Shown here one piece after another: positions 11,905 to 50,068 of a DNA stretch of 64,000 nt. A model generated the notes under the pieces. That model had not been told where the DNA came from. It ran no database searches and saw nothing but the letters and a program-made list of their open reading frames with translations. This DNA is from Candidatus Yanofskybacteria bacterium RIFCSPHIGHO2_01_FULL_41_21. Its GTDB lineage: Bacteria; Patescibacteriota; Minisyncoccia; 2-02-FULL-40-12; GWA2-44-9. The stretch spans positions 8,455-72,454 of the forward strand of contig MGJA01000012.1 in the NCBI GenBank assembly GCA_001794025.1, written 5' to 3'. The position numbers and the translations under genes were made by a program. Numbering within the stretch: the first letter of the stretch is position 1; each line of letters starts with the position of its first letter.

Positions 11905-12065
11905 CCAATTCGAGACAATCTAGACGTTACAGGAGTTGGTTGATATAATTAACGGTCAGCAGACCGATCAACCAACGAACTGCAATGCGAGTTTAGCTGA
12001 GGTGACGAAGGTAGCCCGAAGGGTACCAAGGAACCGGAGGCGTGTCGAGAATGGGTTACGACTCC
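11905..12065. repeat. Family B about 160-nt structured element, copy B1, immediately 3' of the 12072..13445 gene
   Basis: About 90% identical to 49908..50068. On the minus (gene-sense) strand it forms nested hairpins GUUGGUUGAU[CGGUC-UGCU-GACCG]...AUCAACCAAC and GGUACCC-UUCG-GGCUACC (UUCG tetraloop). Confidence 0.55.
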
Positions 12066-12071
12066 GCTTGA

Positions 12072-13445
12072 TTATTGAGACAGAGTTGCCAGAGATGAGG
12101 ATTGGTGTTCTTGGAGCCAGCGGAGTTTGACCAGATAGCCCTTGGTTTCGTCTTTGAGACCACCGGTCTTGGAAGTAAGGGCGTTAACCCAGTCCTGAAT
12201 ACCGCCAAGAATTGAGGCGGTGAGGGTCTTATAAACCCACCGAGGCGCGCCATTATAAGAAGAGGCCAAATATTCTTCCAACTTAGGATCATTAACAATT
12301 TCTTTACCATGAGCCAACATCAGACCTCTTAAATTCTCGTCATACAATAAGATGGCGGCCTTCATGGAATTTAAATGATCCGCAGCCCCAGTTTTAAAGT
12401 CCTTAATCAATTTGGCTGAAGGATAACTTTTTACAATATTGGCATAAGTACGGGGAGTAAATTGGAGCCAACCACAGGCGCTTGAACTATTGCAGGTGGC
12501 ATTAAAGGCCTGGTCTTGATTCGCCCCAATTATGACTTGAGCTCGTTCAATAGTATTCTGCGGGTCAATTTGAAATTCAGTAAGATCGGTTTGCTCTAGA
12601 AGTGGAATCCGACTAAAAAAATCGGAACGTGATTTAAAAACATCAATCACTAGCGTTCCGGAAATCGCGCGGGACTTAACATTAGCCACACGAAGGTCAT
12701 CAAAGGCCTTACTAATAACTGTGTTGGTGTAATCTATGCCCGATTTTACCAAATCGGATGAATGTAAATCTGGACTATACGGTGAATATAATTGATATTT
12801 TATAGTTCGTTGAGTGGAATAAACCGTCCTACCTTTTACTTTCTTAGCAACCGTAGTATCTGTTTCGTTTGGATAAACATTGGCAATAACCACACTATCC
12901 GTAGGAATATTGACTTTATAAGCGGTATTCCAGCCATTCCAAATAATTCCATTCGGACGTCGCAGAATATTAATATTAAATCCGGATGGAGCGATTAATT
13001 CTGCCCCACGTTTTATAATGGTTACAATTTTAATCTCGCCTGATGAAATATTCAAAATCGCCAGAGCAATCTCTTTTTCCGGTTCCTTGAAACTTTTTAC
13101 TGTCAGGGCCAATTTCCCTTTAACCGATGTGTAACGTGTTTCCGTGTAAGCGATAGGTTTATTCCCGACGGTTAAAGTTGTATTTCTTAAAAGTTCTTTG
13201 GCTTCTGTAATTTTTTGAGATACAGTCCAAACCGGTGTTGGAATAGGTGTTGCGGTTATAACAGGAGTCGGTGTAACTATAATTTGGCGAGGCGAAAATA
13301 GACCCATTAATATTGGAATATTTTGGGCATAAACATTAAAACTCCCCACAACAATAATAACGCCAACAATGAGGACGCCTAATAATAATTTTGTATTATA
13401 AATTTTGTTCAATTCTATTAGATAGCGCTTGTACTTTATTAGCAT
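12072..13445 (-). CDS. secreted/membrane-anchored protein with C-terminal lytic-transglycosylase-like (SLT-like) region
   Basis: N-terminal TM. C-terminal SSSACGWLQFTPRTY resembles the GxxGLMQxxPxT motif of the SLT domain. The catalytic Glu context is not evident. Confidence 0.5.
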   Translation of the reverse strand: MLIKYKRYLIELNKIYNTKLLLGVLIVGVIIVVGSFNVYAQNIPILMGLFSPRQIIVTPTPVITATPIPTPVWTVSQKITEAKELLRNTTLTVGNKPIAYTETRYTSVKGKLALTVKSFKEPEKEIALAILNISSGEIKIVTIIKRGAELIAPSGFNINILRRPNGIIWNGWNTAYKVNIPTDSVVIANVYPNETDTTVAKKVKGRTVYSTQRTIKYQLYSPYSPDLHSSDLVKSGIDYTNTVISKAFDDLRVANVKSRAISGTLVIDVFKSRSDFFSRIPLLEQTDLTEFQIDPQNTIERAQVIIGANQDQAFNATCNSSSACGWLQFTPRTYANIVKSYPSAKLIKDFKTGAADHLNSMKAAILLYDENLRGLMLAHGKEIVNDPKLEEYLASSYNGAPRWVYKTLTASILGGIQDWVNALTSKTGGLKDETKGYLVKLRWLQEHQSSSLATLSQ

Positions 13446-14736
13446 AATTTACACAATCAGCCCGAGTACTTTTAGAATTACCGCAATAATAGGCCTTGGA
13501 TGCGGCAATTTCGCCGGCTCTGGTTTTAGAATTGGCTCCACCACGAGAAAGTTTTGCCGCCGCCGCGATAAAAGCATCTTCTATATTCCAGGGATTTGCT
13601 AAGGGACGACCCGTAATTCTGGCAACCTCGTCTTTATAGCCCATCCAAGTTGAGGGAATAAACTGGGCCGGCCCCATTGCACCACCCCAACCATTACCTA
13701 TCGGACAAGACACAGCTGTCGTTTCCGGATCCATCCCTAATTCAGATGTAATTTTTAAAAATGGTTGGATATCGCGAGTAGGTTTCATAATAACTCTATA
13801 ACCCTTTGAGGGTGGATCGCCAGCCCGATTACATTTGCCGACATTTCGTCCTAACCCGGATTCAAGTTCAAGTTCAGCAATAAGAAATGCCGGGCGAATA
13901 CCGGTTGCAATTGCGGCCAGATTACCAAATTTAACAGCATCGTCAGCCGTCACGCCATTTTGCTGTAAGTAAAAAATCTCGGCTTTAATTTTTTCTATCT
14001 TAGATTGAGATTGACTTACTAATGTCTGAAATTTTGATTCTTGACCCTTTGTCTCTTTTAAAAGTTTGTCTTTTTGGGCCTTATTTTGATCAACACTTCT
14101 TTTATTAATTTCTTCCAGACCTTTCTGTTTTTCAAGATCGGTTCGTTTGTCTTCCAGTTCTTGCCCCTTTTCTTCAAGTGACACTTTGAGAGCTTGAATC
14201 CCATCTATGACCACCCTCAACTCATCTTGGGTTGTTTTAATACTATTTAAATCAGTGAAAAAATCTGAAAGCGCTTCGTGTTTGAGTAAAACAGTGGTCA
14301 ATGTCTCTTGATCGTTTTGATATAAAATTCTTAAATACTGTCCCAAGATAACCTGATTCTTGGCAATTTCTACTTCGGCTTCCTTAATTTTTTCTTGAGT
14401 GCTTTGAACTTCAGAATTTGTCTTGGCAATGGAGAGACCCAAGCTTTTTATTTCTAAGTTAAGTTGATTTATTTTGGCGTTTAATTTAGATACCTCGCTC
14501 TGAAGCGTCACTTTTGTGGGTTGAATCGCATCAATTTGTTGCTGATATTGTTCTATTTCTCGTTGAATTGCATCAATTTCAGAATATTTTTTATTTACGT
14601 CATCAGTAACAGCTGCTTGAGCCAAAAGACCGAAACACAACCCCGACATGATTATTGCCGAAAACCCGCCCAACCAGATGATTCTGGTCATTCGGGCAGG
14701 TACTAAAAACCCCCGATATTCTAATACTCGTTTCAT
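13396..14736 (-). CDS. coiled-coil protein with C-terminal lytic murein transglycosylase (SLT) domain
   Basis: ELESGLG ... GAMGPAQFIPSTW is a classic SLT catalytic motif. Long N-terminal coiled coil after a TM helix. The ORF-track start 14865 extends through Family C element C-b; the start is probably Met at 14736 (MKRVLEY) or 14691. Confidence 0.7.
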   Translation of the reverse strand: MKRVLEYRGFLVPARMTRIIWLGGFSAIIMSGLCFGLLAQAAVTDDVNKKYSEIDAIQREIEQYQQQIDAIQPTKVTLQSEVSKLNAKINQLNLEIKSLGLSIAKTNSEVQSTQEKIKEAEVEIAKNQVILGQYLRILYQNDQETLTTVLLKHEALSDFFTDLNSIKTTQDELRVVIDGIQALKVSLEEKGQELEDKRTDLEKQKGLEEINKRSVDQNKAQKDKLLKETKGQESKFQTLVSQSQSKIEKIKAEIFYLQQNGVTADDAVKFGNLAAIATGIRPAFLIAELELESGLGRNVGKCNRAGDPPSKGYRVIMKPTRDIQPFLKITSELGMDPETTAVSCPIGNGWGGAMGPAQFIPSTWMGYKDEVARITGRPLANPWNIEDAFIAAAAKLSRGGANSKTRAGEIAASKAYYCGNSKSTRADCVNYANKVQALSNRIEQNL

Positions 14737-14747
14737 CCCAGGTAGTA

Positions 14748-14872
14748 GAAATCCGACCTGCGCTTTGTTTTGCTTACTAAAACGCAAGAATAATATCTCT
14801 ATTTTATCTATTAAATGCCACAAATAGTGAAGGTTAAGCGCATGCAAAACATGTCGGATTTTCACTACCTGG
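14748..14872. mobile_element. Family C MITE-like element, long copy (C-b)
   Basis: TIRs CCAGGTAGTAGAAATCCGAC ... GTCGGATTTTCACTACCTGG. Sits 11 nt upstream of the likely start of the transglycosylase gene. Confidence 0.55.
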
Positions 14873-15008
14873 CATCCTATTCATTGTATCATATATCTAC
14901 GAGTCAAGGGATAATTAAATTACCTTTAAATATTGGTCTCAAAATGAATGGTTGATAATTATTTGGTTTTACCGTGTCAAAAAGTTATAATATATATAAC
15001 AATCCAGA

Positions 15009-17225
15009 ATGATAAAAGTCCAAAATAATCTCCGACGTTTTGTCTGTTTTCTTTTAGTTATCTTAGCATCTTTTATTTTTGTAAATTCGGTCTCAGCTGT
15101 CACTCTTGGAATTTCCGGAAATCGTTTTACTCTTGATGGCCAAGCCAAATTTTTGGTCTTAAGTGGTTATTGGGATGGCTTGGATGCTCCTAATCCATCA
15201 GCTGACCTTAATTATCTTAAATCTAAAGGGTTTGATGGTATTAGAATATTTCCTAATTTGTGGGATTATTGTGCTGGTTGTTCTTCTGAATTTACACCTG
15301 GCAACAACCCAGTTATTAAACCCGATGGAACCATAAACCAATCTAGATTAAATCAATTAATTTCAATTATAGACACGGCAAATAGTTTGGGAATGATTGT
15401 TGATGTAACATTTGCCAGAGAAACAATAGCAGGAAATTGCCAAGCTAGCGCGGGGAATCCTGTTATTTGTATCACAGAATTTAAAAATGGAGTTATATCC
15501 GTCGTTAATGCTCTTAAAAATAAAACTAATGTTTTTTACGATTTATCTAATGAATACGATCATCCAGCAATAGATGTCCCTAATGCTGATATAATAGACC
15601 TCAAAAATAGAATCCGAAGTAACGTGGGGACAAACATAATTCTCTCTGTTTCTAGTAGCCAACCCAGCGGCTCTGTAGCAATAAATAATGCCCGTTCTAT
15701 GGGTATGAATTTAGTAAGTGTTCACTGGGCTTCTGGAACAACAGAATTAAATACCAGCCTTTATCCTGGTTCAATAATTTCATCTTTGCCGACATATGTG
15801 GGAGAGCCATATAATACCCACTCTGTGTCTGGTTACACTTCAGCGGAACTTATAAATGGAGTGGTAGAAGCAAAGAAGGCCGGTATCGCCGCTTGGTTGT
15901 TCCATTCAGATGCCACTTTCTTATCAAATGGTGAATATCCAATTAGATTTCAAAGCAATGAACAAGGATTTGTAAATAGTTTTTTATCGGCTTTACAAAG
16001 TGTAACTTGGGGTGGGGGTGGGGGCGGGGGTGGGACGGTACCACCGCCAACCAGTGGGGCTTGCATAAATCCGGCACCGGCCACATCAACTGTTCCGGAC
16101 ATGAAATCGGTTGTCCAAGGGGTAGCAGCGGCTCATCCAAACTGGTTACAAGACGTGTGTAATAGTTATGATTTTATAGACGAAGTAGTAAGACAATTAA
16201 GGGCTGGCCCAGGCGGGACGAGATGGGCTTATGAAGCGAAGCGGGCCAACTTAAGTGATCCTTGGCAGGAAGGAATTTCTTATTACTACGGTTCAGGAAA
16301 CGCACCAACTCCAGGAACAATGAGTCAATATGAGGTCTTTGCAATTGATATCGTTCATCAATATTGCGGTGTTGCCGGCGGAGGCACAAATACTGCTGAT
16401 TGGAATGTTGCAGATTGGCCTTATCGCAGTCCAAACTTAGTAGAAGTCGCTTATCTCTATCCAAGAAACGCCGGTGGCTCTCTGCCTGCTCCCCAACTTT
16501 GTACGGGGCAACCCCCTCCCCAGCCGCCACCGCCGCCCACCGGTCCGCCGACAATAACCGGTATCAGTCCTCTAAGAGCGGCTATCGGTCAAACAGTAGA
16601 AATTTATGGCACGAATTTAGTTGAAGATATTAAATTAGAATTATCGGATGGAAGATTTTACACGGTAACAGGAGTAGTTGATTTTCAAAGAACAACTCTT
16701 AGTTTCACAGTCCCCGATGCTCCCGCCGGTTCCTACAAAATATCTATCACCGGACCAAGTGGTTCAGCTACCAGTCCTCAAAATTTAGAAGTAGTTGCTG
16801 GTGGTTCCGGCTTCCCCCCTCCCCTTAACCTAGGTGTGCCTTCAGAAGGTCTACCAACTGATTTAGGACAGCTTATTGAGGCAATATTCAGTTGGTCTCT
16901 TTCTTTGATTGGTTTAGTTATCTTTGTCCGTTTCTTCTATGCCGGATTCTTATGGTTTACGGCGGCGGGTAATACAAATAGGACGGGACAAGCAAAAGAT
17001 ATAATGAAAAACGCCATTTATGGCGCTTTGATTCTTTTCTCGGCTTGGTTGATTCTTAATACTATCAACCCTGATTTGGTGGGAGGGGTCTTTGATTTAC
17101 CGGGGCTATCGGGGACGGCACCAACAAGCGGGACAGGAGGAACAGGAACAGCGGTCACTTGTAACAATGGTGTTTGCAGTAATGGTTTTACTGGGCCTTG
17201 TCAGGCCCCAACTGACTGTCAATAA
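15009..17225 (+). CDS. large secreted multidomain protein: signal peptide, GH5-like glycoside hydrolase region, poly-Gly and poly-Pro linkers, IPT/TIG-like domain, C-terminal two-helix TrbC/VirB2-pilin-like module, Cys-rich tail
   Basis: Signal peptide FVCFLLVILASFIFVNSVSA. LSNEYDHP resembles the GH5 NEP acid/base motif. ITGISP...VEIYGTNL is IPT/TIG-like. The C-terminal 100 aa (LIEAIFSWSLSLIGLVIFVRFFYAGFLWFTAAGN...AKDIMKNAIYGALILFSAWLIL) has two hydrophobic helices separated by a short loop. Confidence 0.8.
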   Translation: MIKVQNNLRRFVCFLLVILASFIFVNSVSAVTLGISGNRFTLDGQAKFLVLSGYWDGLDAPNPSADLNYLKSKGFDGIRIFPNLWDYCAGCSSEFTPGNNPVIKPDGTINQSRLNQLISIIDTANSLGMIVDVTFARETIAGNCQASAGNPVICITEFKNGVISVVNALKNKTNVFYDLSNEYDHPAIDVPNADIIDLKNRIRSNVGTNIILSVSSSQPSGSVAINNARSMGMNLVSVHWASGTTELNTSLYPGSIISSLPTYVGEPYNTHSVSGYTSAELINGVVEAKKAGIAAWLFHSDATFLSNGEYPIRFQSNEQGFVNSFLSALQSVTWGGGGGGGGTVPPPTSGACINPAPATSTVPDMKSVVQGVAAAHPNWLQDVCNSYDFIDEVVRQLRAGPGGTRWAYEAKRANLSDPWQEGISYYYGSGNAPTPGTMSQYEVFAIDIVHQYCGVAGGGTNTADWNVADWPYRSPNLVEVAYLYPRNAGGSLPAPQLCTGQPPPQPPPPPTGPPTITGISPLRAAIGQTVEIYGTNLVEDIKLELSDGRFYTVTGVVDFQRTTLSFTVPDAPAGSYKISITGPSGSATSPQNLEVVAGGSGFPPPLNLGVPSEGLPTDLGQLIEAIFSWSLSLIGLVIFVRFFYAGFLWFTAAGNTNRTGQAKDIMKNAIYGALILFSAWLILNTINPDLVGGVFDLPGLSGTAPTSGTGGTGTAVTCNNGVCSNGFTGPCQAPTDCQ
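16803..17110 (+). repeat. duplicated about 308-nt C-terminal module (copy 1) shared with 19264..19571 at about 93-95% nucleotide identity
   Basis: Direct comparison of the two nucleotide stretches; they differ only at scattered positions. Confidence 0.8.
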
Positions 17226-17256
17226 AACACCTTAGAGAAAATAACAAAATAAGATA

Positions 17257-19587
17257 ATGGCAAATCGTATCCTAAAATTACTCTTAATAACGTTTCTTTT
17301 TATATTTCCCATACAATTAGTTTTTTCCAGTATTCCTCAATCTCTTCCTGCTCCGACTCATTCTATAATGTTCGGATATTATCATGTCGACTCACAATAC
17401 GGCGACTTTAAAGATGAAGTAAAGGACTACACAAACACCCAACTTATTCTTCAAGAAAGTTTTTTGAGAAGCGACCTAAATAATATCCAAGAATTTAATG
17501 ATGCTTTTGATGAGACGATAACCTTGGGACATAAAATTGTCTATGTCTTGGGGACGGACTGGAATCAAGGTCTTAATGCCGTTAAGCCCTATTGGAATAA
17601 CGTTGAGTTTATTTACTTAGCTGATGAGCCGAGTTGGGATAAAGCAACAACAGAGACCAATATTACTAATTTTAAAAATTTAGTAACCCAAGCCGGACTG
17701 GCTCAAAAACAGATAGCTATCAATTATACCCCCCAACAAATCCAAACTGGCACCAGTTATCAAGCCGTTAATCTAGACATCATCGGATTTGAAGCATATG
17801 TAGATCCGGCCAAGCAAGATGACCCCAATATCCTGACAATTTTAGAAGATCAGATAGATGCTTCCAAGCAAAAAATAGGCAATAAAAAAATGTTTATTGT
17901 TATTCAGGCCTATGACCGAAACGGTGTCTGGAAAAACATGACCTCTATTCAGGATATCCAAATTACCCCATACTTAAAATCTTACAATGATAGTAATGTC
18001 ATCGGCCTGTTTATGTTTTCTTATGCCCGATCGGGCGGAACGAGAGACAACCCGACCCTAAAAACAGCCCATCAATTAATCAGCGATACTTTGCTCGGAA
18101 AAGGACCCATTGAATCAACAATTACCGACGTCACTACAGGTTGGGGCGGTAGCTTGGCTTTTAATCCAACAAATAATACATGGATGGTTGTTAGTCACCA
18201 TCATACAATGAAAGATATATTTGCTCGTTTACTCGATAATAATGGTAACCCCTTAACCGTTATGACTACCGTTGACCAAGAACCTACATTTCTTACGGGC
18301 GGTCCAGAAGTGGCTTATTCTCCTGATATAAATAAATTCTTAATTGTCTGGTGGCAAGAAAATATTACAGACACTTCCGCGGACATTTATGGTCGTTTCA
18401 TGTCAGCTGACGGTGCTCTCTTGGGGAATGCCTTTAATCTTACCCCAAATGACTCTCGGGTTCCCTATCTCGCCGAAAGTTCAATAATGCAATACGATTC
18501 CCGCAATAAAAAATTTGTCTTTGCTTTTGAAAACAGGGCCCCAGGAAATGTGTCGGTCTATTTAAAAACGGTCGGCATAGACGGAACTGTCGGACCAACT
18601 TTGATGATAGCTGAAAATCCGCCGGATTTTTTGGGCGCACCATCATTAGCGATAAATGAAACAGGAAATGAATATTGCATAAGTTACCAAAATGCCGGCG
18701 CCAATCAACCCAATAAATTAGCCGCAGAATCAAGTAGTTTGGCTGTAAAAAGGATTGATGCCTCCACCATGCAAGTCGGACCTGAAACATTTGTTTCTAA
18801 CGATATGTACTACAACGGTGGTATCGTTTACAATTCACAAGAGGATAAATATTTTGCCACTTGGACCAACTACGCTTTAAGCACCGGACTTGCAAAAACT
18901 CTCAACTCCTGCGACGGTACAGACACTGATGATACTGAAGATATTGATATTTCTACTTCGGGAGTTATTTCTTATAACCCAAAATCAAATACTTATGCTC
19001 TGATTGCTCAAGATTGTTGTAGTGTACGCAACAACTACATTATTTTTGACACGTCTTTAAATGTCCTGGAACAAGGAACCGTGTTCACTGATTCCAAAAA
19101 ATCTGAAATAACAGGTGACCCCGAAGCTGGCGGTAATTTTGCTCCAGTAATCATGGCTAACACTAACAACGGGACATATGGTGCCACTTCCAGTATGGAT
19201 TATGCTACCACAAGATTTGCCTCCAATGTTGGTTCGACTGTTCTGCTTGGTAGAACATATAGCGGTTCCGGCTTCCCCCCTCCACTTAATCTGGGTGTAC
19301 CTTCAGAAGGTCTACCAACTGATTTAGGACAGCTTATTGAGGCAATATTCAGTTGGTCTCTTTCTTTGATTGGTTTAGTTATCTTTGTCCGTTTCTTCTA
19401 TGCCGGATTCTTATGGTTTACGGCAGCTGGTAATACATCAAATACAAGTAAAGCAAAGGATATAATGAAGAACGCCGTTTATGGCGCTTTGATTCTTTTC
19501 TCGGCTTGGTTGATTCTTAATACTATCAATCCTGACCTGGTGGGAGGGGGCTTTGATCTACCGGGATTGAGTGGTGGGATGCCTTAA
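17257..19587 (+). CDS. large secreted protein: signal peptide, glycoside-hydrolase-like region (IYLADEPSW), beta-rich repeat region, same C-terminal TrbC/VirB2-like two-helix module
   Basis: Signal peptide ILKLLLITFLFIFPIQLVFSS. C-terminal 100 aa nearly identical to the preceding gene. Confidence 0.8.
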   Translation: MANRILKLLLITFLFIFPIQLVFSSIPQSLPAPTHSIMFGYYHVDSQYGDFKDEVKDYTNTQLILQESFLRSDLNNIQEFNDAFDETITLGHKIVYVLGTDWNQGLNAVKPYWNNVEFIYLADEPSWDKATTETNITNFKNLVTQAGLAQKQIAINYTPQQIQTGTSYQAVNLDIIGFEAYVDPAKQDDPNILTILEDQIDASKQKIGNKKMFIVIQAYDRNGVWKNMTSIQDIQITPYLKSYNDSNVIGLFMFSYARSGGTRDNPTLKTAHQLISDTLLGKGPIESTITDVTTGWGGSLAFNPTNNTWMVVSHHHTMKDIFARLLDNNGNPLTVMTTVDQEPTFLTGGPEVAYSPDINKFLIVWWQENITDTSADIYGRFMSADGALLGNAFNLTPNDSRVPYLAESSIMQYDSRNKKFVFAFENRAPGNVSVYLKTVGIDGTVGPTLMIAENPPDFLGAPSLAINETGNEYCISYQNAGANQPNKLAAESSSLAVKRIDASTMQVGPETFVSNDMYYNGGIVYNSQEDKYFATWTNYALSTGLAKTLNSCDGTDTDDTEDIDISTSGVISYNPKSNTYALIAQDCCSVRNNYIIFDTSLNVLEQGTVFTDSKKSEITGDPEAGGNFAPVIMANTNNGTYGATSSMDYATTRFASNVGSTVLLGRTYSGSGFPPPLNLGVPSEGLPTDLGQLIEAIFSWSLSLIGLVIFVRFFYAGFLWFTAAGNTSNTSKAKDIMKNAVYGALILFSAWLILNTINPDLVGGGFDLPGLSGGMP
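19264..19571 (+). repeat. duplicated C-terminal module (copy 2)
   Basis: See 16803..17110. Confidence 0.8.
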
Positions 19588-20638: not shown

Positions 20639-20639
20639 A

Positions 20640-21023: not shown

Positions 21024-21092
21024 GTTTTCATTGTATAGAATTTAATCGTTTTTGCCAACCTATTTAGTAACAAGAGGATATTAAATATGGAT

Positions 21093-21722: not shown

Positions 21723-21739
21723 ACTCTGTAAATTCTAAA

Positions 21740-22314: not shown

Positions 22315-22362
22315 TTATAGTTTTATTGTATAATGGCTTAAGATTAATTTCAATAGAAGACA

Positions 22363-42897: not shown

Positions 42898-42908
42898 TGG
42901 TTTTCTTG

Positions 42909-43127
42909 CGGCTTCCGCTCGGAGTTCGCTCCCTCCACCCCAAACTCGATTATCCATCAAATTGTGTCAACGTCACTTGGGGTATACTCTTATCCCCAGA
43001 CCCAGGGAACCAGTCCCGTCGGTTCCCGAGGCGATTCTAGAGGCGGCTAAAGCACGCCTCCAAGAAACTTCGCCTTGACCAAAGGGTCCCCTTCCGCTAC
43101 TGGGTCTAAGAGTATACCCCAAGTGAC
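42909..43127. repeat. Family A element copy A3 (inverted orientation; GCGAAGC hairpin replaced by a 56-nt nested-hairpin insert)
   Basis: TIRs GTCACTTGGGGTATACTCTTA ... TAAGAGTATACCCCAAGTGAC. Core and tail match A2/A4 in reverse complement. Confidence 0.6.
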
Positions 43128-43171
43128 TTAAAATTAAATTACTCTCTTTTTTGGGTATTTTTTTAAATAAA

Positions 43172-43210
43172 AAAAGACCCCGTCGGAAGTCGCAATGTGG
43201 ACGGGGCTTT
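43172..43210 (-). terminator. rho-independent terminator (strong on minus strand)
   Basis: GACCCCGTC-GGAAGTCGCAATGTG-GACGGGGC. On the minus strand it is followed by UCUUUUUUUAUUU. Confidence 0.6.
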
Positions 43211-43700
43211 GTAGATTTTGGAGAGTAACGGGTCCGGACGGTGCGAACGAGTGATTTCCTCGTCGCACCGTCCGGCCGCCAGCCGGGCGATCGGCACGGA
43301 TCTTGGGCGCGGAGGTGTCACACCGCCCTCACCTTTAGCCGACCGCCCCGACTTCGTTTTCTCTGGCCGCCACAGAATTGTCATTGGTGCCGGTACGGGT
43401 ACGGGGAGCTCTCCCGACCCATGCGGCCCACCAAGCAATTGGTGAGGGCCAGACGTTCATCGCGATTGAGTCGCGACACTTACAGACCGGGTAAATAAAG
43501 GTCTCTATGAGAACATCGTCGAACCCCTCCTGGGGTGTACCTTTATCCACACACGGTCTTTTTAATGACCTGGGTTGCTGGAGACAGTTGGACGTCTCGG
43601 AGTTTTTTATTTCTCCGGCTCCCTTAGGCCCAGGTCAATTCATGAGCAACGGGCTCGCAAAAACCAATACCTACTCGCCCGTCCGTAGTTATACGGAGGA
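43211..43700 (-). ncRNA. GC-rich (about 60% GC) roughly 500-nt non-coding island with multiple stable hairpins; candidate structured ncRNA of unknown class, or a decayed GC-rich mobile insertion
   Basis: No credible ORF. Composition is very different from the roughly 38% GC surroundings. Has a 15-bp hairpin GGACGGUGCGAACGAG/CUCGUCGCACCGUCC and ends at the 43172 terminator on the minus strand. I tested tmRNA, RNase P and SRP consensus motifs by eye and could not place them. Confidence 0.3.
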
Positions 43701-44031
43701 GGGCTAACGCTCGCTATATATACGAACTTCTCTATGTTTCTATCGGCCTATTCAACTAAATAAAGTGATGATGCCTGAAAATAGCGTATTTACTGGTTTT
43801 TGCGAGCCCATTACTGGGCTCTTTATAAAGAACAGACCTATACAACCATTATAGCACCCTGCGCCTAGGAAGTCAACCCCGCCGTTGAGAAGCGACATTT
43901 AGGGCTAATTAATGGCTTTAAACCTATGTAAATTGTTCCCACCATTATTTTACCTATAGTCCATTTGAAGAATATTCATCGCTTCTCAACGGCGGGGTCA
44001 ATACCCCACAAAATTGGTATAACATAAGGGG

Positions 44032-44886
44032 CTATTTGAAGTATACTCGGTCATCAAAGCGTAAATCTATGTATTGGGGTTTAAGTGTTCCATTGGCCAT
44101 TTTCTGGGTTCTAAATATACGAAACGTATCAAGCTGGTTTTGAAGATTTGAATCAATACTAAACTTAACTAAATAACTTGCTCCAATCGGTAAGATGGGG
44201 TCATTAACCAGAACATCAAACTCTGTGTATGTATCAACGGGGATGGTAATATTTTTAACTTTAACACCTTGCTCAATCAAAATTGGGACGACAGTTTGGA
44301 TGGCTTTAAGAAATTTTGAATAGACCGTTAATGGAGACGTTGATGCCGATTGAATTCGCATATCATTAACGTTGAGTAAAAGCACGCCCGATGATTGAAT
44401 CGCTTGGCCAAACGTCACACCATCGTGGTCAAAGTATCGACAATCGGGAATTTCTTGAGATGAACCCGTAGAAACAAAACACCAGACCCCTTCTGCCCGA
44501 CGTTCGGTCACGGATATTTTTAAGGTATGCAAATATTTTTTCTTAACGGAAACATTCTCTATAAATGAGAATCGGGAAATTAATTCAGCGACTAAAGAAT
44601 CAGATTGAACAAAAAATATATCTCGTCCTATTGGAATACCGAACACTTTACGATTCAGATTCTCATCAATGACCCCCTGAACATCTCTCTGGTGCCCGTC
44701 AGTCAATCCTTCATATGAAATAGTGGTTACTCTCAACCACGGCGCATAAAAAAGAGCGTAACCAATGCCGACAAGAATAACGACAACAACAAAAATAATT
44801 AATCCTATTTTTATCTCAAAACGATGGCGTCGTTTAGACGCCAATTTATCGTTGTGTTTAAATTTTTTAATATCAACAGGACGCAT
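44032..44886 (-). CDS. ftsQ: cell division protein FtsQ/DivIB-like (TM + POTRA)
   Basis: Single TM (IGLIIFVVVVILVGIGYALF) followed by a POTRA-like region. The ORF-track N-terminus MAVMCG is encoded by the TIR of the 44885 element; start is probably MRPVDIKKF at 44886. Confidence 0.6.
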   Translation of the reverse strand: MRPVDIKKFKHNDKLASKRRHRFEIKIGLIIFVVVVILVGIGYALFYAPWLRVTTISYEGLTDGHQRDVQGVIDENLNRKVFGIPIGRDIFFVQSDSLVAELISRFSFIENVSVKKKYLHTLKISVTERRAEGVWCFVSTGSSQEIPDCRYFDHDGVTFGQAIQSSGVLLLNVNDMRIQSASTSPLTVYSKFLKAIQTVVPILIEQGVKVKNITIPVDTYTEFDVLVNDPILPIGASYLVKFSIDSNLQNQLDTFRIFRTQKMANGTLKPQYIDLRFDDRVYFK

Positions 44887-45022
44887 CCCGCACATAACAG
44901 CCATAAATTGCTTTAAGGCAGTACTACGTGTTTAGTACTCGCATGCAACTTCACTATAGCTGTGATTATTAAACTAAGTTAGTCCCGCAATTAGTACTGC
45001 AAATGGCTGTTATGTGCGGGAT
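44885..45022. mobile_element. about 138-nt element with perfect 20-bp TIRs (ATCCCGCACATAACAGCCAT / ATGGCTGTTATGTGCGGGAT) bridging the serS stop and ftsQ start
   Basis: TIRs seen directly. The right TIR contains the last 3 codons and stop of serS; the left TIR overlaps the ftsQ ATG. The interior has AT-rich -10-like hexamers on the minus strand. Confidence 0.55.
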
Positions 45023-46281
45023 TTGATTTCTTTGAATCCGCAATATTTTTGGAGGACTTTGGGGATTTTAATGGAACCGTTTTTTTGTTGGAAGTTTTCT
45101 ATGATGGCAATTGGCCAGCGACTTGAATAATTAATGGCCGTGCCGTTAAGTGTGTGAACAAATTCAGTATCGCCGTTTTCTTTTCGGTAACGAATATTTA
45201 ATCGGCGGGCCTGAAAGTCAGTGCAATTAGAAGCACTGGTAATTTCTCCGTATCCGCCGGTTGATGAGGCGGAGTCGCCTTTCATGACCATCCAGGCCTC
45301 AATATCAAATTTACGGTAAGCCGGCCCACCTAGATCTTGGCTCGCCACGTCTATCACACGATATGGGAATCCAAGTCCACTAGCAATTTCACGTTCAATG
45401 GTTAAAATTTCCTGATGCATTACTTCACTTTCTTCGGGTTTACAAAAAACAAACATCTCTAATTTCACGAATTGATGGACCCGATACATACCTTTTGAAG
45501 TCCGACCATAAGCTCCGGCTTCGGTACGAAAACAATGAGACAAAGCCACATATTTCTTTGGACCCTTAGAAAGATCTAGAATTTCGTTGGCGTGATATCC
45601 CCCGATTGTAATCTCGGCTGTTCCTATTAAAGATAGGTCATTATTATCAATTGAATATATTTGTGTTTCCGGGCCGCGGGGATTAAATCCGATTCCTTCC
45701 AAAATTTCGTCTTTGGCTAAATCGGGGGTCTCCATTAATTCATAACCATGTTTGGTAACAATATCAATGCCGTACTGAATCAGGGCCTGATTTAATCGGA
45801 CCAAGTCACCTTTAGAAAAGAAAAACTTATTACCGGCTACTTTGGTACCACGTTCAAAATCTATCAGACCTAAATCCAGCAAAATGGCTTCGTGGTCTTT
45901 TGGTTCAAAATTAAACTTTGGTATTTTGCCTTCGGTTGCCAGGACTTTGAAATCCTCCTCTCCACCGATGGGAGTTTCGGGATGGGTTAAATTGGGTACT
46001 GCTTTTAATAATTTATTATAATCAATCTCAATAGTTGCCAACTCTTTTTCAAGCGTCGCTATCTGATCACCGACTTGGCGCATTTTGGCGATATCTTCCT
46101 CGCTCGGTTTGCCTTTGGAACCCTGATTTCTTTGGGCCCGTAATTCTTCAATTTGAGCCATATGCGCCCGACGATCACGATCAAGCGTTAAAAGATTATC
46201 CAAATCCAAAACCACACCTCTGTTTTTCAAATTTTCTTTTATCAGTTCCGCGTGTTCGCGAATATATTTTATATCAAGCAT
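45010..46281 (-). CDS. serS: seryl-tRNA synthetase
   Basis: N-terminal coiled-coil arm. Class II motifs 2 (FRTEAGAYGR-like: CFRTEAGAYGRTSKGMYRVHQF) and 3 (GGYG...). 423 aa. Confidence 0.9.
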   Translation of the reverse strand: MLDIKYIREHAELIKENLKNRGVVLDLDNLLTLDRDRRAHMAQIEELRAQRNQGSKGKPSEEDIAKMRQVGDQIATLEKELATIEIDYNKLLKAVPNLTHPETPIGGEEDFKVLATEGKIPKFNFEPKDHEAILLDLGLIDFERGTKVAGNKFFFSKGDLVRLNQALIQYGIDIVTKHGYELMETPDLAKDEILEGIGFNPRGPETQIYSIDNNDLSLIGTAEITIGGYHANEILDLSKGPKKYVALSHCFRTEAGAYGRTSKGMYRVHQFVKLEMFVFCKPEESEVMHQEILTIEREIASGLGFPYRVIDVASQDLGGPAYRKFDIEAWMVMKGDSASSTGGYGEITSASNCTDFQARRLNIRYRKENGDTEFVHTLNGTAINYSSRWPIAIIENFQQKNGSIKIPKVLQKYCGFKEIKSRT

Positions 46282-46282
46282 T

Positions 46283-46322
46283 TTTTAGGATTTAGAACTT
46301 AGGAATTAGGACTTAGAACTTA
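46283..46322. repeat. tandem heptamer array NNNNTAG (GATTTAG-AACTTAG-GAATTAG-GACTTAG-AACTTAG) between serS and lysS
   Basis: Same heptamer family as the arrays flanking the four-helix-bundle gene. Confidence 0.35.
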
Positions 46323-46353
46323 GTTTCTGACCCTATGTCCTAATGGCTAATTA

Positions 46354-47688
46354 CTAGTGGCTATCTTTGGGTCGCATGGTTGGGAAAAGAATAACTTCGC
46401 GCAGGGAATGGGAATCGGTTAAAAGGGCGACGAGGCGGTCAATGCCGATACCGAAGCCGGCTGAAGGTGGCATGCCGTATTCAAGGGCTTCAATGAAATC
46501 ATTGTCCATGCGTTGAGCTTCTTCATCACCTTTGGCGCGCATATTTTCTTGGGCCTTAAATCTTTCCTGTTGATCAATCGGGTCGTTTAATTCGGTGAAG
46601 GCCTTAACTAGCTCTGTTCCGCCGGCATAAAATTGAAAGGCCTCTACGACATCCGTACCGGGCTTTAATTTAGTAAGAGGTAACATATCTTTTGGATAGT
46701 CCATAACAAATGTTGGTTCAATCAGTGTCCCCCGAATTTTTTCTTTAAAAACAGTGTCCTCCAAACTGCCAACGTCCTGCATGAGTTCTTTGTAGGTAAT
46801 TCGGCGAAATGGTTTTTTGAATCTTTCAGGCGCAATTGTAACCATTAAGTCCTCAATAAAATCCATACCCCAATTATAGTCCTTATAAGCGACATAAAAT
46901 TCTACGGCTGAAAATTCAGGATTGTGTTCTCGATCAATGCCTTCATTTCTAAAATTAGTGGTAAATTCAAAAACCCGATCTAACCCGCCAACCAAAAGAC
47001 GCTTTAAATATAGTTCCGGCGCAATACGAAGAAACATATCTTGATCAAGAGCATTTAAATGGGTCTTGAACGGGCGGGCAGAAGCACCACCATATAACGG
47101 TTGCAGAGTCGGTGTGGTTACTTCCAAAAATTCATGTTTCATTAAATAGTGACGAATGGCTTGGATAATCTCGGCGCGCTTGATAAATTTCTCGCGAACT
47201 TCAGTACTCATCAATAAATCAAGATAGCGTTTACGGAAACGTTCTTCCACATCAATCAATCCGTGCCACTTTTCCGGCAACGGCAAAAGGGTCTTGGTCA
47301 ATATCCCTATTTCGGTGGCTTCTATAGTGCGTTCGTCTTTTTTGGTTTTGAAAAGAGTTCCCCTAACCTCAATGATGTCACCAATATCAATCAGTTCATT
47401 AAAAAATTTAAACCCATCCGCGCCAAGGGTGTCTTCTTTGGCACAACCTTGGATTTTTGAACCATCTTCATTCAAGTCAAAGAAAATAAGTCCGCCATGT
47501 CCACGTTGGGCCATAATCCTGCCAGCTAGGGTTACCTCTTTTTTTGACTCTGCAAGTTCATCAAATCTTTCCAATGCTTCAACCACGCTCATTGAGCGTT
47601 TTGTTGTCGCCGGATACGGATCTATCCCCATCTTCCGTATTTCCTTCAACTTATCCATTTTTACTTGCCGAATATCATCAAGAGCCAT
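46354..47688 (-). CDS. lysS: lysyl-tRNA synthetase (class II)
   Basis: OB-fold N-domain and class II catalytic core (motif 2 FRNEG, motif 3 GIGIDRL). Start is likely the internal Met (MALDDIRQ) rather than the ORF-track 47727. Confidence 0.9.
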   Translation of the reverse strand: MALDDIRQVKMDKLKEIRKMGIDPYPATTKRSMSVVEALERFDELAESKKEVTLAGRIMAQRGHGGLIFFDLNEDGSKIQGCAKEDTLGADGFKFFNELIDIGDIIEVRGTLFKTKKDERTIEATEIGILTKTLLPLPEKWHGLIDVEERFRKRYLDLLMSTEVREKFIKRAEIIQAIRHYLMKHEFLEVTTPTLQPLYGGASARPFKTHLNALDQDMFLRIAPELYLKRLLVGGLDRVFEFTTNFRNEGIDREHNPEFSAVEFYVAYKDYNWGMDFIEDLMVTIAPERFKKPFRRITYKELMQDVGSLEDTVFKEKIRGTLIEPTFVMDYPKDMLPLTKLKPGTDVVEAFQFYAGGTELVKAFTELNDPIDQQERFKAQENMRAKGDEEAQRMDNDFIEALEYGMPPSAGFGIGIDRLVALLTDSHSLREVILFPTMRPKDSH

Positions 47689-47878
47689 CCGAGTAGTAGA
47701 AGTTCCGGAATAATAATACAGACCCAAGCAGCCGGAACTTCACTACTTGGTTCATAGTATTAAGTATATAGTATTACGTATTATGTATCCAGAGCTTTAA
47801 AATATCAAATAAAACTAAACGCCGTCTCGGAACACCTCCTTGTTAGTGATGGCGTTTAGTGAGACGGCGGAAATTTGG

Positions 47879-49222
47879 CTAAGAGGGGGTGGGCAACGAG
47901 ATTCCCAGTTCTTCAACAAGAACACGCTTTACTTCAGCGACTGGGTCTTTTTCGTTAAGGACTTGGCGACCTAACACGATGTAATTAGCACCGTTTTCAA
48001 TGGCCCGTTTCGGCCTAGCAATCTCATCTGACCTGACTCCCGGCGTGACAAAAATCTTATCGAACGGGAACATTGCTTTCAGGCGTGAAACCTCTTGCGG
48101 TGGGCATACAAAACCGTCTGTCCTACCATTGTCAGCTTCAGTTGCCAGTCGTTTGACAGTATTGAGCAAAGTTTTTCTGTAGATCATCTTGCAGTCATCG
48201 TCACTCAAAGACGTCAGAGCCGTAATTGCCAAGACCTTGGTATTAGTATTGAATAATGCTTCCTTAGCAGCCCTGACCATTCTCATACCGCCCGAGGCGT
48301 GAACTGTTACGGCCCACACATTATGTTTGGCCAGACGCCGACAAGTGTTTTCAACGGTATTGGGAATATCGTGACACTTGAGATCAACCATGATTCGTCC
48401 ATAGACGGACAGTTCCGGCAACAAGTGATCCATTCCTTCAGCAAACAATAAATCATTCACCTTAAGAATGCACCCCATTGTCCGCAACTGTTCTACGATT
48501 GGCAGAATTTCATCCCACGACTTGCCATCAAGGGCAACAATGATTGGGTTTTGTTCTTTGACCGCCTCGTCGCATTGCTTCATCTCGCCCATATTGATGA
48601 GCTCACGGCGGACGTCATGAAGTGTCATCCCAGACCAAACATCAACACCCAAAATTCGCATGGTTTCTTTCCAGCCCTGCTGACGATCAACCAGAACCAC
48701 CAGAGCCAGGACGTCAAGACCAAGATTGAAGCACTCATTACAAGGAATGAACTTCGTCGTGCCATCGGTAATAACGTCGTCAATCAGACAGACCTGTTCG
48801 CCTTTGACGGCATCACCAATCACTTTTGCATTGCCGACACGGCCTTCTTTGGCCTCGCCCCGAATCGTGAGATACGGGATATTTGAAGCCACCGATAGTG
48901 TTCCGGCAAAACAAGAAACCGAGTCCGGTATTTCTACGAACCGCTGAACATTGAGCCGTTGCAACGGCTCCATGAACAGTTCTGTAAGAAAACTGATAGC
49001 TTTGGAATTATTTCGCGCATCACGCAAGTTGATATAGATGTCCGTTTTGCCACCACTCGCCAAGGGTAGGTTCCGACCGTTATCAAACTCCAACAATCCG
49101 AAGTCAAGTAGACGCCTGACAACTTCCCGTTGGTGCTCGCGCGGAATCCACGGCTGTTTCATTGATAATAGTTTCAAGGTACACACTCCTCCAGCCAAAT
49201 TTGGCTGGCCATATTCTGCCAT
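47879..49222 (-). CDS. bifunctional orotate phosphoribosyltransferase / orotidine-5'-phosphate decarboxylase (PyrE-PyrF fusion, UMP-synthase-like order)
   Basis: N-terminal PRTase motif VCLIDDVITDGTT. C-terminal ODCase motifs IVALDG, DLKCHDIPNT, VHASGG, VTPGVR, LGRQV. Local GC is visibly higher than the surroundings. Confidence 0.85.
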   Translation of the reverse strand: MAEYGQPNLAGGVCTLKLLSMKQPWIPREHQREVVRRLLDFGLLEFDNGRNLPLASGGKTDIYINLRDARNNSKAISFLTELFMEPLQRLNVQRFVEIPDSVSCFAGTLSVASNIPYLTIRGEAKEGRVGNAKVIGDAVKGEQVCLIDDVITDGTTKFIPCNECFNLGLDVLALVVLVDRQQGWKETMRILGVDVWSGMTLHDVRRELINMGEMKQCDEAVKEQNPIIVALDGKSWDEILPIVEQLRTMGCILKVNDLLFAEGMDHLLPELSVYGRIMVDLKCHDIPNTVENTCRRLAKHNVWAVTVHASGGMRMVRAAKEALFNTNTKVLAITALTSLSDDDCKMIYRKTLLNTVKRLATEADNGRTDGFVCPPQEVSRLKAMFPFDKIFVTPGVRSDEIARPKRAIENGANYIVLGRQVLNEKDPVAEVKRVLVEELGISLPTPS

Positions 49223-49328
49223 TTCGTATAAATAAAATCAAGCAAACCCCTTAAAAATCCAAGGTGGAACCTTATATTTTTAAGTTGACATTATAACTAT
49301 CCTAGTATATAATACGCAACAGACGGCT

Positions 49329-49823
49329 TTGTTTCCGCCCACAATGGGCAAGGAGGTTGCGATGGGTTTGAAAAAGTTGAATCGGTTGACACCAGTGATG
49401 ATGGACGATATCGTTGCTGGTCAGACGTACATCAGAGTAATTGTAGATGTGTACGGCTGGATGAGATTGTCGTACCAAGTTTTCTACGGAAGGGCTTTCA
49501 AAGACAAAGCGATTGTTGTGGATTCTTGGTGGATTAGAATCTCTGAAAACGGGAGAGCAGTTCAGGTTCAGTCATTAACGGATATGGGTATGGATCCATC
49601 CCATTTTCACAACGACCATCGAACCTTCAGAAACACGGGGAAAAACGAGCAGAAGCTCAATGATCTCGTAGAACGCCAAGCTCTCGCCGAGTACCTTACT
49701 CTCATTGGTTACAGTGACCCAAAAGATGAGGTTGCCAAGATTAAGGTTCAAGGTGAAGATCACCGTAGATTCGCTCGCGTGTTAGACAGCATGAAATATG
49801 AATCGGATGATCTTTCGCTTTAA
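49329..49823 (+). CDS. hypothetical protein
   Basis: 164-aa ORF in the GC-richer patch. No family recognised. Confidence 0.4.
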   Translation: MFPPTMGKEVAMGLKKLNRLTPVMMDDIVAGQTYIRVIVDVYGWMRLSYQVFYGRAFKDKAIVVDSWWIRISENGRAVQVQSLTDMGMDPSHFHNDHRTFRNTGKNEQKLNDLVERQALAEYLTLIGYSDPKDEVAKIKVQGEDHRRFARVLDSMKYESDDLSL

Positions 49824-49907
49824 CCGAACCACCCCCCGGACGACTAGGACGTCCGGGGGTAAATTATTTTATACAAAAAAATCACTTAAAGTAACCAGGA
49901 GTCCTTG

Positions 49908-50068
49908 CCAATTTGAGACAATCGAGACGTTGCAGGAGTTGGTTGATATAATATTTGGTCAGCAGACCGATCAACCAACGAACTGCAATGCGAGTTTAGC
50001 TGAGGTGACGAAGGTAGCCCGAAGGGTACCGAGGAGCCGGAGGCGTGTCGAGAATGGTAAGGACTCTT
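49908..50068. repeat. Family B structured element, copy B2, ending 2 nt before the greA stop codon
   Basis: See 11905..12065. Confidence 0.55.

Follow-up and report, generated by a model that had tools for sequence, protein, structure and literature searches.

Several described systems approach a short structured repeat at gene ends. Correia elements (CREE/NEMIS) of Neisseria and the ERIC, RUP and BOX repeats have conserved terminal inverted repeats and a direct target duplication (TA in Correia elements), and occur in tens to hundreds of copies. The transposase-encoding IS1397 is directed at a conserved REP sequence, and group IIC introns are large ribozymes with a reverse transcriptase that insert after a stem, not inside it. 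The genomes of CPR bacteria are tiny, with few known regulators and almost no described non-coding RNAs, and a literature search on intergenic repeats or structured RNAs in CPR/Patescibacteria yielded nothing specific. The family described here is small and previously uncatalogued; its repeats, ~190 bases long, occur in a narrow set of groundwater bacteria that have not been cultured. This family, Family B, is dispersed and non-coding, has a low copy number and is restricted to one lineage, a subclade of Candidatus Yanofskybacteria.

The window, i.e. the whole 64,000-nucleotide stretch of DNA that was analysed, contains a direct repeat at 11905-12054 and 49908-50057, with 94% identity over 150 nt. 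A preliminary description had put the identity at about 90%; the repeat is real, while this figure needs correction. Its placement of two equally oriented copies, each beside the stop codon of a minus-strand gene, is borne out by stops at 12072-12074 (copy 1) and 50071-50073 (copy 2). The copies had been reported to end 2-7 nt from these codons. They do adjoin them, but the conserved block ends 10-14 nt away; the intervening bases belong to an inverted repeat that differs between loci and also covers the stop codons. The convergent gene adjoining copy 1 (12072-13445, 457 aa) had been taken for an SLT-like gene; it has no match in a Pfam search, and the SLT_2 domain is located in the following gene, 13396-14865. 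The features of the two copies, with bit scores for our covariance model R1, are:

11836-11876, no strand assigned: terminator-like hairpin of the upstream plus-strand ORF 11017-11817 (context, outside the element), 7 nt before P1 of copy 1; its match to the Thr_leader model is confined to the terminator part
11883-11907, plus strand: 5' arm of the closing helix P1 of copy 1, AATAATCAAGTGAGGTCGTAATCCA; inverted repeat pairing over 25 positions with 3 G:U and one A.C
11912-12046, plus strand: core of copy 1 (R1 160.9 bits, E=3e-36), with P1b GACA:UGUC, P2 at 11919-11990 and P3 at 11996-12041
11941-11949, plus strand: TGATATAAT box of copy 1; TAGACG-17-TATAAT with TG, 10/12
12052-12076, plus strand: 3' arm of P1 of copy 1; in the convergent 457-aa gene it covers the stop 12072-12074 and 2 nt of the codon before it
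49833-49859, plus strand: terminator-like hairpin of the upstream plus-strand ORF 49329-49823 (context, outside the element), ~29 nt before P1 of copy 2
49889-49910, plus strand: 5' arm of P1 of copy 2, AAGTAACCAGGAGTCCTTGCCA; inverted repeat in which 22/22 positions pair, 2 of them G:U
49915-50049, plus strand: core of copy 2 (R1 166.8 bits, E=1e-37), with P2 at 49922-49993 and P3 at 49999-50044
49938-49947/49970-49979, plus strand: 10-bp helix of P2 of copy 2, with the bulge at 49948-49955 and the apical hairpin at 49956-49969
49944-49952, plus strand: TGATATAAT box of copy 2
50055-50076, plus strand: 3' arm of P1 of copy 2; overlaps the greA stop 50071-50073 and last codon 50074-50076

The upstream plus-strand ORFs (266 and 164 aa), which have no match in Pfam or PHROG, were considered as partners of the element and dismissed, as they are mutually unrelated and absent from L003 and relatives.

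With just two copies within the 64-kb window, a plain segmental duplication or a chance similarity had to be considered, and the preliminary description had contrasted a duplication, with only two copies and duplicated neighbouring sequence, with a functional family. Homology is lost sharply at both ends of both copies, hence the flanks are not duplicated. More copies exist at three other loci in other assemblies, and a 21-mer of the element, with a chance expectation of 0.01, matches the window solely at the two copies. Duplication and chance are thus refuted and retain practically no probability. The 8 core differences between copy 1 and copy 2 comprise both transitions and transversions, along with a change of 3 nt in a loop. 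A template/variable repeat pair of a diversity-generating retroelement was rejected, since the differences are not confined to adenines and neither copy is coding.

The 21-mer retrieved five loci among 241 million metagenome records, and covariance model R1 added a divergent copy, L026. One of the five, L004, is window copy 2 itself; it was rejected as an independent copy because it is identical to the window until mid-greA and then diverges, i.e. it is a chimeric or recombinant contig. In total, 7 distinct copies at 5 loci were found in at least 4 Candidatus Yanofskybacteria (CPR) assemblies:

downstream of the 457-aa gene: window copy 1, L003, L021
downstream of greA: window copy 2
beside two different convergent genes: L002, L005
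between divergent gltX and priA: L001
upstream of gpmI: L026

Three of the five loci begin 0-7 nt past the stop codon of a convergent gene, and the remaining two (L001, L026) are not downstream of any gene on the element's minus strand. The neighbours comprise the 457-aa protein of unknown function, greA, mnmA, gltX, priA, gpmI and glycosyltransferase-type genes; all copies are confined to the spaces between transcription units. The density is low, with 2 copies in 64 kb and 2 + 1 on two contigs of 362 and 371 kb, or ~2-3 copies per 0.36-0.7 Mb. An exact-pattern scan of GTDB species representatives with two conserved stretches gave 0 matches and then 3 chance matches that failed the covariance model, three exact patterns had 0 matches in IMG/VR, and blastn against phage and plasmid collections found nothing. 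A 124-aa ORF is called across the core on some contigs, and a protein search with the conceptual translation of the core's open frame returned no match.

Orthologous sites lack the element in L022, L023 and L026 and in L009-L011, in closer as well as in more distant relatives. The cores of L003 and L005 differ at 1/135 positions from each other and at 12-13 from their positional orthologs, and type-1 cores differ at only 3-8/135 between genomes with ~12% flank divergence. The core has spread or been exchanged between loci. Other, unrelated element families occupy the same slots, several of them in hairpin apices at the same greA site; the element that follows greA in L006-L008 was rejected as a distant homolog, as R1 gives no match and its fold is different.

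On the plus strand the conserved core of 135 nt is predicted to adopt a three-way junction whose internal loops are of the tandem G.A type. The five internal loops flanking the P1, P2 and P3 helices (GA/GA, GA/GAA, GA/GGA, GA/GA, GAA/GA) consist purely of G and A on this strand. Both the apex of P2 and the distal part of P3 vary, with a 49-nt insertion at the former in L001 and an unrelated hairpin at the latter in L026, where the UUCG-loop arm is lost. A check proposed earlier, whether the copies differ by compensatory pairs, turned out positive once L026 was included: in a model-fitted alignment, 9 pairs are changed on both sides, in two lineages (L003/L005 and L026), a value reached in 0/500 shuffles, and 3 of these are U:A to C:G changes within the 10-bp P2 helix of L026. 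The other suggested check, cmscan against Rfam, places the element in no Rfam 15 family at either the gathering or a permissive threshold. At the gathering threshold the whole window contains only tRNA-Gln, and permissive scans of both copies gave sub-threshold noise (the top match on the element being mir-133, 16.7 bits vs 55.5; C/D sR53, 14 vs 49). An archaeal-type C/D box/kink-turn was rejected as well. Such a kink-turn is formed by box C (RUGAUGA) and box D (CUGA), while GUGACGA and CCGA in P3 score only 14 and 7.9 bits and the arm is replaced in L026.

The hairpins quoted in the preliminary description are present on the gene-sense strand, but the opposite (plus) strand folds much better: for copy 2 the plus strand reaches -77.4 kcal/mol (z -7.8) and the minus strand -53.8 kcal/mol. 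The plus-strand fold is favoured by 9-27 kcal/mol in the six full copies and by 17 in the truncated seventh (L026). Among the six full copies, 32 G:U cells face 3 A.C 1x1 mismatches on the plus strand, and with L026 included there are ~16 independent G:U events vs 4 A.C. The fold is under constraint on one strand only, the window plus strand, antisense to greA and the 457-aa gene; the G:U asymmetry as such could also result if mutation is biased between strands or if the DNA passes through a single-stranded intermediate. These data bear on a 3'-UTR stability, processing or terminator element co-transcribed with the minus-strand genes. The start of three loci just past a convergent stop codon, the C(UUCG)G loop on the minus strand, the still significant minus-strand fold (z -3.7 to -4.5) and the U-rich tails after P1 on that strand, e.g. 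AUUAUUUAU and UUACUUUAAGUGAUUUUUUU, are consistent with it. The minus strand is, however, the weaker one in every full copy, wobbles become A.C mismatches and internal loops UC/UC on it, neither L001 nor L026 follows a minus-sense gene, and the UUCG arm is replaced in L026. We hence consider a 3'-UTR role very unlikely; among the three readings offered earlier it is the least supported, while an antisense sRNA gene and a small mobile element are both viable and jointly fit best.

The extended -10 box TGATATAAT is invariant in 7/7 copies, including the divergent L026, where the adjoining helix covaries, and TTGATATAAT, previously noted on the plus strand, is present at 11940-11949 and 49943-49952. 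The box lies at a helix-bulge junction: its TGAT forms the end of the 10-bp P2 helix and its ATAAT the start of the 8-nt bulge, so that its -12/-11 boundary coincides with the junction. TGNTATAAT occurs 11 times in the window vs 3.8 expected, one copy being 27 nt upstream of tRNA-Gln. An internal promoter would be unable to make the full fold, as the 5' halves of P1 and P2 are upstream of its start site, and no -10/-35 at a fixed distance common to the copies was found upstream of P1.

The copies may form a family of trans-acting sRNA genes (sibling sRNAs) on the plus strand, with P1 as a sequence-free closing, processing or terminator stem; functional constraint and gene conversion between paralogs would preserve the similarity of the cores. 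The RNAs might, for example, act as a sigma-binding decoy like 6S RNA, with the duplex TG and single-stranded ATAAT as a 'fork junction' look-alike. This reading draws on the same strand and structure evidence as our preferred one, to which we come below, and on the few differences among type-1 cores despite their flank divergence; multi-copy RNA genes typically evolve in concert. The position of the box boundary at the helix-bulge junction and the combination of variable arms with a conserved junction, as typical of functional RNAs, also agree with it. Presence/absence turnover between close relatives, unrelated elements in the same slots and the lack of a promoter or terminator frame common to the copies argue against it, as do, for the decoy function, the missing Rfam 6S match and the lack of a central bubble or of a template strand opposite the bulge; we know of no precedent for sigma recognition of an RNA -10 mimic. 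A family of sibling sRNAs is therefore a plausible but doubtful explanation.

The core is enclosed by P1, a nearly perfect closing hairpin of 19-25 bp that differs from locus to locus. The four complete loci have P1 arms of unrelated sequence, which nonetheless pair over 19-25 bp in every case, and at both window copies the foot of P1 overlaps the neighbour's stop codon. The 5' arm of copy 1 is also found in the ortholog L003, with 4 transitions. At loci A and B the 5' foot is A-rich and the 3' foot U-rich on both strands. As an intrinsic terminator P1 would have a 'loop' of ~145 nt; no terminator was called there by the scan, loci C and D have no U tract, and no clear terminator follows P1 on the plus strand. 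The ends of the element form a short imperfect pair, CCAATTY...GAATGG at loci A, B and E but ATCA...TGAT at loci C and D.

Two origins of the locus-specific stem can be envisaged: a boundary hairpin of the host may have been invaded at its apex, or the stem may have been built later by replication template switching, with neighbouring sequence copied in reverse complement. Template switching creates and expands inverted repeats (PMC8794818, PMC13100816) and would give, in one step, perfect long stems with one arm being a reverse-complement copy of the neighbour; it is a mutational process, which accounts for the closing stem and leaves the conserved, dispersed core unexplained. Neither origin fits every locus, since a terminator is not expected between the divergent genes that flank L001, and relatives without locus A have no hairpin at that site. 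Long hairpins are also found elsewhere in these sequences. The window holds 'empty' perfect ones, e.g. 4939-4980, the clearest stem with an arm reverse-complementing neighbouring functional sequence is at 44885-45022, beside serS, and an in-frame palindrome lies inside mnmA.

A mobile origin was assessed by a MITE/Correia-like transposase and copy-number test covering the window, the metagenome contigs and 26 window ORFs. A direct target-site duplication is absent at all four complete loci, where the flanks are reverse complements, and none of the 26 ORFs is a transposase, reverse transcriptase or integrase. With the low copy number, this leaves classical transposition unsupported. An element acting at the DNA level, as ssDNA on one strand, would be a non-autonomous relative of IS200/IS605-type PATEs or of integron attC-like sites, inserting into or recognised via hairpin apices, and its wobble tolerance would reflect G.T pairs in folded ssDNA. 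The strand-specific pairing bias, the copies in apices of long hairpins next to 'empty' hairpins in the same window, and the several unrelated families in hairpin apices at one greA site speak for such an element. Against it are the lack of an HUH, tyrosine or DEDD recombinase among the 26 ORFs, ends without a conserved cleavage tetranucleotide, the very low copy number, and the purine-only tandem G.A loops and compensatory changes, which are more typical of RNA. We regard an ssDNA element as decidedly unlikely.

As judged from sequence comparison and predicted folds, we tentatively favour, at not quite even chances, a spreading RNA-type module that lives at transcription-unit boundaries, as opposed to a 3'-UTR element belonging to the flanking genes. 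The element would be made as plus-strand RNA, with a core that folds by itself and propagates as a module through insertion, gene conversion or both. Such a module may be tolerated at unit boundaries because its own ends pair, so that the surrounding long hairpin still closes, and there it would probably act as a bidirectional hairpin barrier or an RNase III-type processing site. The TGATATAAT box would probably fire outward, to the 3' neighbour. A bolder version, a self-propagating structured RNA (or ssDNA) module whose spread is coupled to long hairpins and whose duplex-TG/single-stranded ATAAT junction mimics an open promoter and recruits RNA polymerase, appears unlikely. The coupling might arise by structure-specific integration into the apex of a boundary hairpin, or by insertion or maintenance generating an inverted copy of adjacent host sequence. 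Several unrelated families in the same genomes have the design of a core inside a locus-specific long stem, which could hence be a general, undescribed mode of intergenic elements in CPR.

Family B offers a concrete, testable ncRNA candidate in CPR: its fold and strand are defined, a covariance model is available, and sites with and without the element are known. If structured cores in long locus-specific hairpins reaching stop codons are general, they bear on intergenic space, terminators and new RNA hairpins in reduced genomes. Gene calling is affected too, with spurious ORFs and false start codons called across such elements; should the family be just another selfish intergenic repeat, its practical value would be for annotation only.

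Compared with known systems, the element resembles retron msr/msd ncRNAs in size (~170 nt) and in internal hairpins bracketed by element-specific inverted repeats (a1/a2), but several element copies have one common core; a retron ncRNA was rejected, as neither the neighbours of the copies nor the 26 window ORFs tested include a reverse transcriptase. It recalls 6S RNA in its length (~180 nt in 6S RNA), long closing stem and, for the element, possible promoter-DNA mimicry, and 6S RNA also occurs in more than one copy in some bacteria; 6S models, however, give no match on the element at E<=10, and it has a three-way junction instead of a central bubble, no template strand for product RNA, and loci that turn over. 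With IS1397/ISKpn1, which enter REP loops, and with group IIC introns, found at terminator hairpins, it shares the placement of a mobile sequence at a gene-boundary hairpin, but has neither a REP target, a transposase, a ribozyme nor a reverse transcriptase. Correia, ERIC, RUP and BOX repeats are likewise ~100-200 bp, non-coding, intergenic and often near gene ends, form long RNA hairpins that are RNase III substrates, may carry outward promoter boxes and differ in presence between strains. The element is set apart from these Correia-type repeats by an outer stem that differs per locus, flanks that are inverted and not direct, ~2-3 copies per genome, and a core that forms a three-way junction constrained on one strand.

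A repeat search of the window recovered a two-copy direct repeat (11905-12054 and 49908-50057; 150 nt) with 94% identity, which bears out the near-identical pair of the preliminary description and corrects its figure of about 90%; all motifs quoted there were found. A 21-mer from this family, family B, matches only these two sites in the window with 3 mismatches permitted (0.01 expected). As described, both copies adjoin the stop codon of a minus-strand gene, ORF 12072-13445 and greA (50071-50532). The label greA was correct, while the label SLT-like was not: ORF 12072-13445 (457 aa) has no Pfam hit, and SLT_2 lies in the next gene (13396-14865). Just upstream of the copies are two mutually unrelated + strand ORFs without Pfam or PHROG hit, each with a terminator-like hairpin behind it: 11017-11817 (266 aa), missing from L003, a relative's contig, and 49329-49823 (164 aa), which more distant relatives lack between greA and asnS, together with a pyrF-type gene.

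When the two copies are aligned with their flanks, similarity is lost abruptly at both edges, hence the neighbours are not duplicated. A simple duplication, with just two copies and duplicated flanks, had been named as the alternative; the flanks are unduplicated and further copies exist at other loci, and family B is a real finding that goes beyond a duplication. In a scan of JGI metagenome contigs, the 21-mer matched five loci. L004 corresponds to copy 2 of the window itself; its contig (Ga0209343_10106040) diverges only inside greA. Compared with window 49750-50526, it is identical over 482 nt that span the element and greA's 3' half, and identity then falls to roughly 75-80%, owing either to chimeric assembly or to a recombination breakpoint within greA. 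L003 occupies the position orthologous to copy 1, and its genome flanks are 88% identical. L002 and L005 share one locus, where the element ends 6-7 nt past the stops of two different convergent genes. L001, with a 49-nt insertion at the P2 apex, lies between divergent gltX and priA, 31 nt from each start codon. Judged by GreA, the organism belongs to Candidatus Yanofskybacteria.

A covariance model of the core (R1), built from six distinct cores, was searched against ~300 kb (window and fetched relatives). Besides the known copies and their identical strain variants (L015-L019 and L021), it matched a single new, divergent copy: L026, at 107 bits. This copy is truncated by the contig end, and gpmI follows it immediately in the same orientation. 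Nothing else was matched. Searches of GTDB species representatives, IMG/VR and the phage and plasmid collections gave no member of family B, and the suggested Rfam comparison returned no matching family. Family B is uncatalogued, of narrow range and low in copy number, structurally constrained on one strand, and bears signs of having spread between loci. The + strand ORFs spanning the element (49798-50172 and 11936-12130), the 124-aa member of which has been annotated as a gene on public contigs L015-L017, are very probably false gene calls.

Every copy shares one common fold on the + strand:

P1, + strand: 19-25-bp closing helix, outermost part of the fold
Between P1 and the three-way junction, + strand: GA/GA-type loop, then 4-bp helix GACA:UGUC
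Inside the 4-bp helix, + strand: three-way junction with arms P2 and P3
P2, + strand: UCG:CGA, 8-bp helix, 10-bp helix GUUGGUUGAU:AUCAACCAAC, 8-nt bulge AUAAUNNN, 5-bp hairpin with AGCA loop
P3, + strand: several GA-rich internal loops

All seven copies fold better on the + than on the - strand.

Fold energies of the family B copies on either strand (kcal/mol)
Copy 1: + strand -82.1; - strand -65.1
Copy 2: + strand -93.9; - strand -66.6
L003: + strand -87.7; - strand -78.4
L002: + strand -87.8; - strand -73.4
L005: + strand -89.8; - strand -69.2
L001: + strand -119.0; - strand -100.1
L026 (truncated): + strand -62.7; - strand -45.7

Across the six full copies, 32 G:U pairs stand against three A.C 1x1 mismatches in the + strand folds, or about 16 versus 4 when independent events are counted and L026 is included; for a palindrome with unselected transitions a ratio near 1:1 is expected. 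Five internal loops flanking the P1/P2/P3 helices hold only G and A on the + strand (GA/GA, GA/GAA, GA/GGA, GA/GA, GAA/GA) and are UC/UC on the opposite strand. Tandem G.A is a familiar motif of structured RNAs. The initial idea of a 3'-UTR element would fit the position at the neighbours' stop codons but puts the structure on their mRNA strand rather than the better-folding one, and appears unlikely.

L026 altered the helices while leaving TGATATAAT, a promoter-like extended -10 box, the junction strands and both ends unaltered. Its 10-bp P2 helix, GCCGGCUGAU:AUCAGCUGGU, carries three U:A to C:G double changes and two G:C to G:U changes, and at the base of P3 U:G became U:A and U:R became C:G. 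In place of the distal half of P3 (UUCG/CGAA apex, GA loops) L026 has a perfect hairpin unrelated to it; the C(UUCG)G loop reported earlier does exist on the minus strand, but its arm is not conserved. In the proposed check for compensatory pairs, 9 of 43 pairs are altered on both sides when L026 is included (0/500 shuffles reach 9; slid registers 0-3), in an alignment fitted to R1 and with three helix-8 "changes" deriving from the replaced arm; without L026 only two core pairs covary, both from the L003/L005 lineage.

The inverted repeats that bracket the core and form P1 differ wholly in sequence between copies 1 and 2:

11883-11907 with 12052-12076: inverted repeat of copy 1
49889-49910 with 50055-50076: inverted repeat of copy 2

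Their 3' arms reach into the neighbours' stop codons, at greA into the last codon as well. At the four complete loci the P1 sequences are mutually unrelated, each pairing over 19-25 bp, which speaks against ordinary terminal inverted repeats; direct target duplications are absent at these loci. A conserved core inside a locus-specific long stem is an unusual design. P1 has two possible origins, neither of which accounts for every locus. The core may have invaded the apex of host boundary hairpins: downstream of the 457-aa gene and of greA, P1 has a foot with an A-rich and a U-rich side, as in a bidirectional terminator; "empty" perfect ~20-bp hairpins occur in the window, such as 4939-4980, where a 42-nt palindrome without insert forms a 19-20-bp stem and has a GC core and A and U tracts; and in L031 a 29-bp perfect inverted repeat (A-tract, GC stem, U-tract) that includes the last codon and stop codon of greA encloses a different element located behind that gene. 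However, L001 lies between divergent genes, no hairpin is seen at empty sites after the 457-aa gene, and the P1 wobble pairs favour the + strand, not the mRNA strand. Alternatively, the stems may have been made or lengthened by replication template switching, a documented process for building inverted-repeat stems (PMC8794818, PMC13100816). This is supported by a perfect 20-bp inverted repeat around 98 nt between serS and the next gene (44885-44904 / 45003-45022), one arm of which consists of the last 13 nt of serS, stop codon included, and 7 nt. In relatives L009, L011 and L013, either no gap or one of 3 nt separates the stop codon of serS from the start codon that follows, so the far arm must be a reverse-complement copy; it gives the downstream gene a false ATG start (MAVMCG...), the real start being MRPVD.

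The site after the 457-aa gene is filled in the window, L021 and L003. Relatives with 83%, 81% and 75% identity in the 457-aa protein have an empty site there, with mnmA following at 35-80 nt and a long hairpin absent. The greA site is filled only in the window's strain group. In relatives whose GreA is 83-84% identical, asnS is preceded by a gap of 43-59 nt or by a plain terminator, and those at 92%, 91%, 85% and 84% carry other, unrelated structured elements there. The short interval following greA forms a hot spot, with a different structured or palindromic element in each Yanofskybacteria lineage examined:

L006-L008, 10462-10760: element after greA
L012, 10462-11095: element after greA
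L013, 2443-2593: element after greA
L031, 588-830: element after greA

The slot upstream of gpmI likewise holds family B in L026 and family A, a second structured repeat, in the window (7553-7742). Although at different loci, the L003 and L005 cores, from the same metagenome, differ at 1 of 135 positions, versus 12-13 differences each from their own positional orthologs; therefore at least seven shared derived changes moved between loci, by either conversion or re-insertion. No transposase, integrase or reverse transcriptase domain was found in the 26 window ORFs tested.

The box TGATATAAT is invariant in 7/7 copies. In the consensus fold its TGAT closes the 10-bp P2 helix and ATAAT opens the bulge; a promoter scan of copy 1 scored TAGACG-17-TATAAT with TG upstream. 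Because TGNTATAAT is enriched in the window (11 observed versus 3.8 expected), with one copy 27 nt upstream of tRNA-Gln, the box is a credible predicted local promoter. It points toward the 3' neighbour: at three loci it reads antisense into a convergent gene, and at the other two it faces priA and gpmI, each of which has its own -10 box nearer the ATG. A transcript from the box would not contain the 5' halves of P1 and P2, so the constrained fold calls for either a longer + strand RNA or folded single-stranded DNA. It is speculative to read the box as mimicking an open promoter in RNA form. We tentatively favour a propagating RNA-type module at transcription-unit boundaries, whose function and expression we infer from sequence. 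A true sRNA gene family is possible but less likely, and an element acting as single-stranded DNA is unlikely; the G.A loops resemble RNA motifs.

Other repeats accompany family B. Family A (5739-5889, 7553-7742, 42937-43143 in opposite orientation, 59768-59917; L005 5342-5519, about 110 nt from family B) has a conserved core GACCCAGTAGCGGAAGGGGTCCC...GGGRAACCGACGG...TGGTTCCCCGGGTCTGGGG with two variable hairpin slots and no Rfam hit at the gathering threshold; three copies have the closing stem GTCACTTGGGGTATACTCTTA in common, and the fourth (5739-5889) has a different, covarying one. A third repeat (window 63368-63564; L002 5170-5365, about 50 nt upstream of family B) is about 85% identical between the two sites. 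Another family of inverted repeats is marked by the conserved arms CCAGGTAGTAGAAAT.../...TTTCACTACCTGG (4992-5057, 14735-14875, 53883-54023, 55115-55201, 58490-58640). Several of its copies stop at the CAT that is a minus-strand gene's start codon; the family has related motifs upstream of asnS in L012 and L013 and may represent a conserved hairpin of leader or regulatory type. The mnmA coding sequence (9829-11004) contains a perfect 34-nt palindrome (10211-10244), which coincides with a 19-aa in-frame insertion (NPYSPIRANRRIGEFSGAQ) that MnmA of L026 does not have; it can be likened to the in-frame palindromic elements of Rickettsia.
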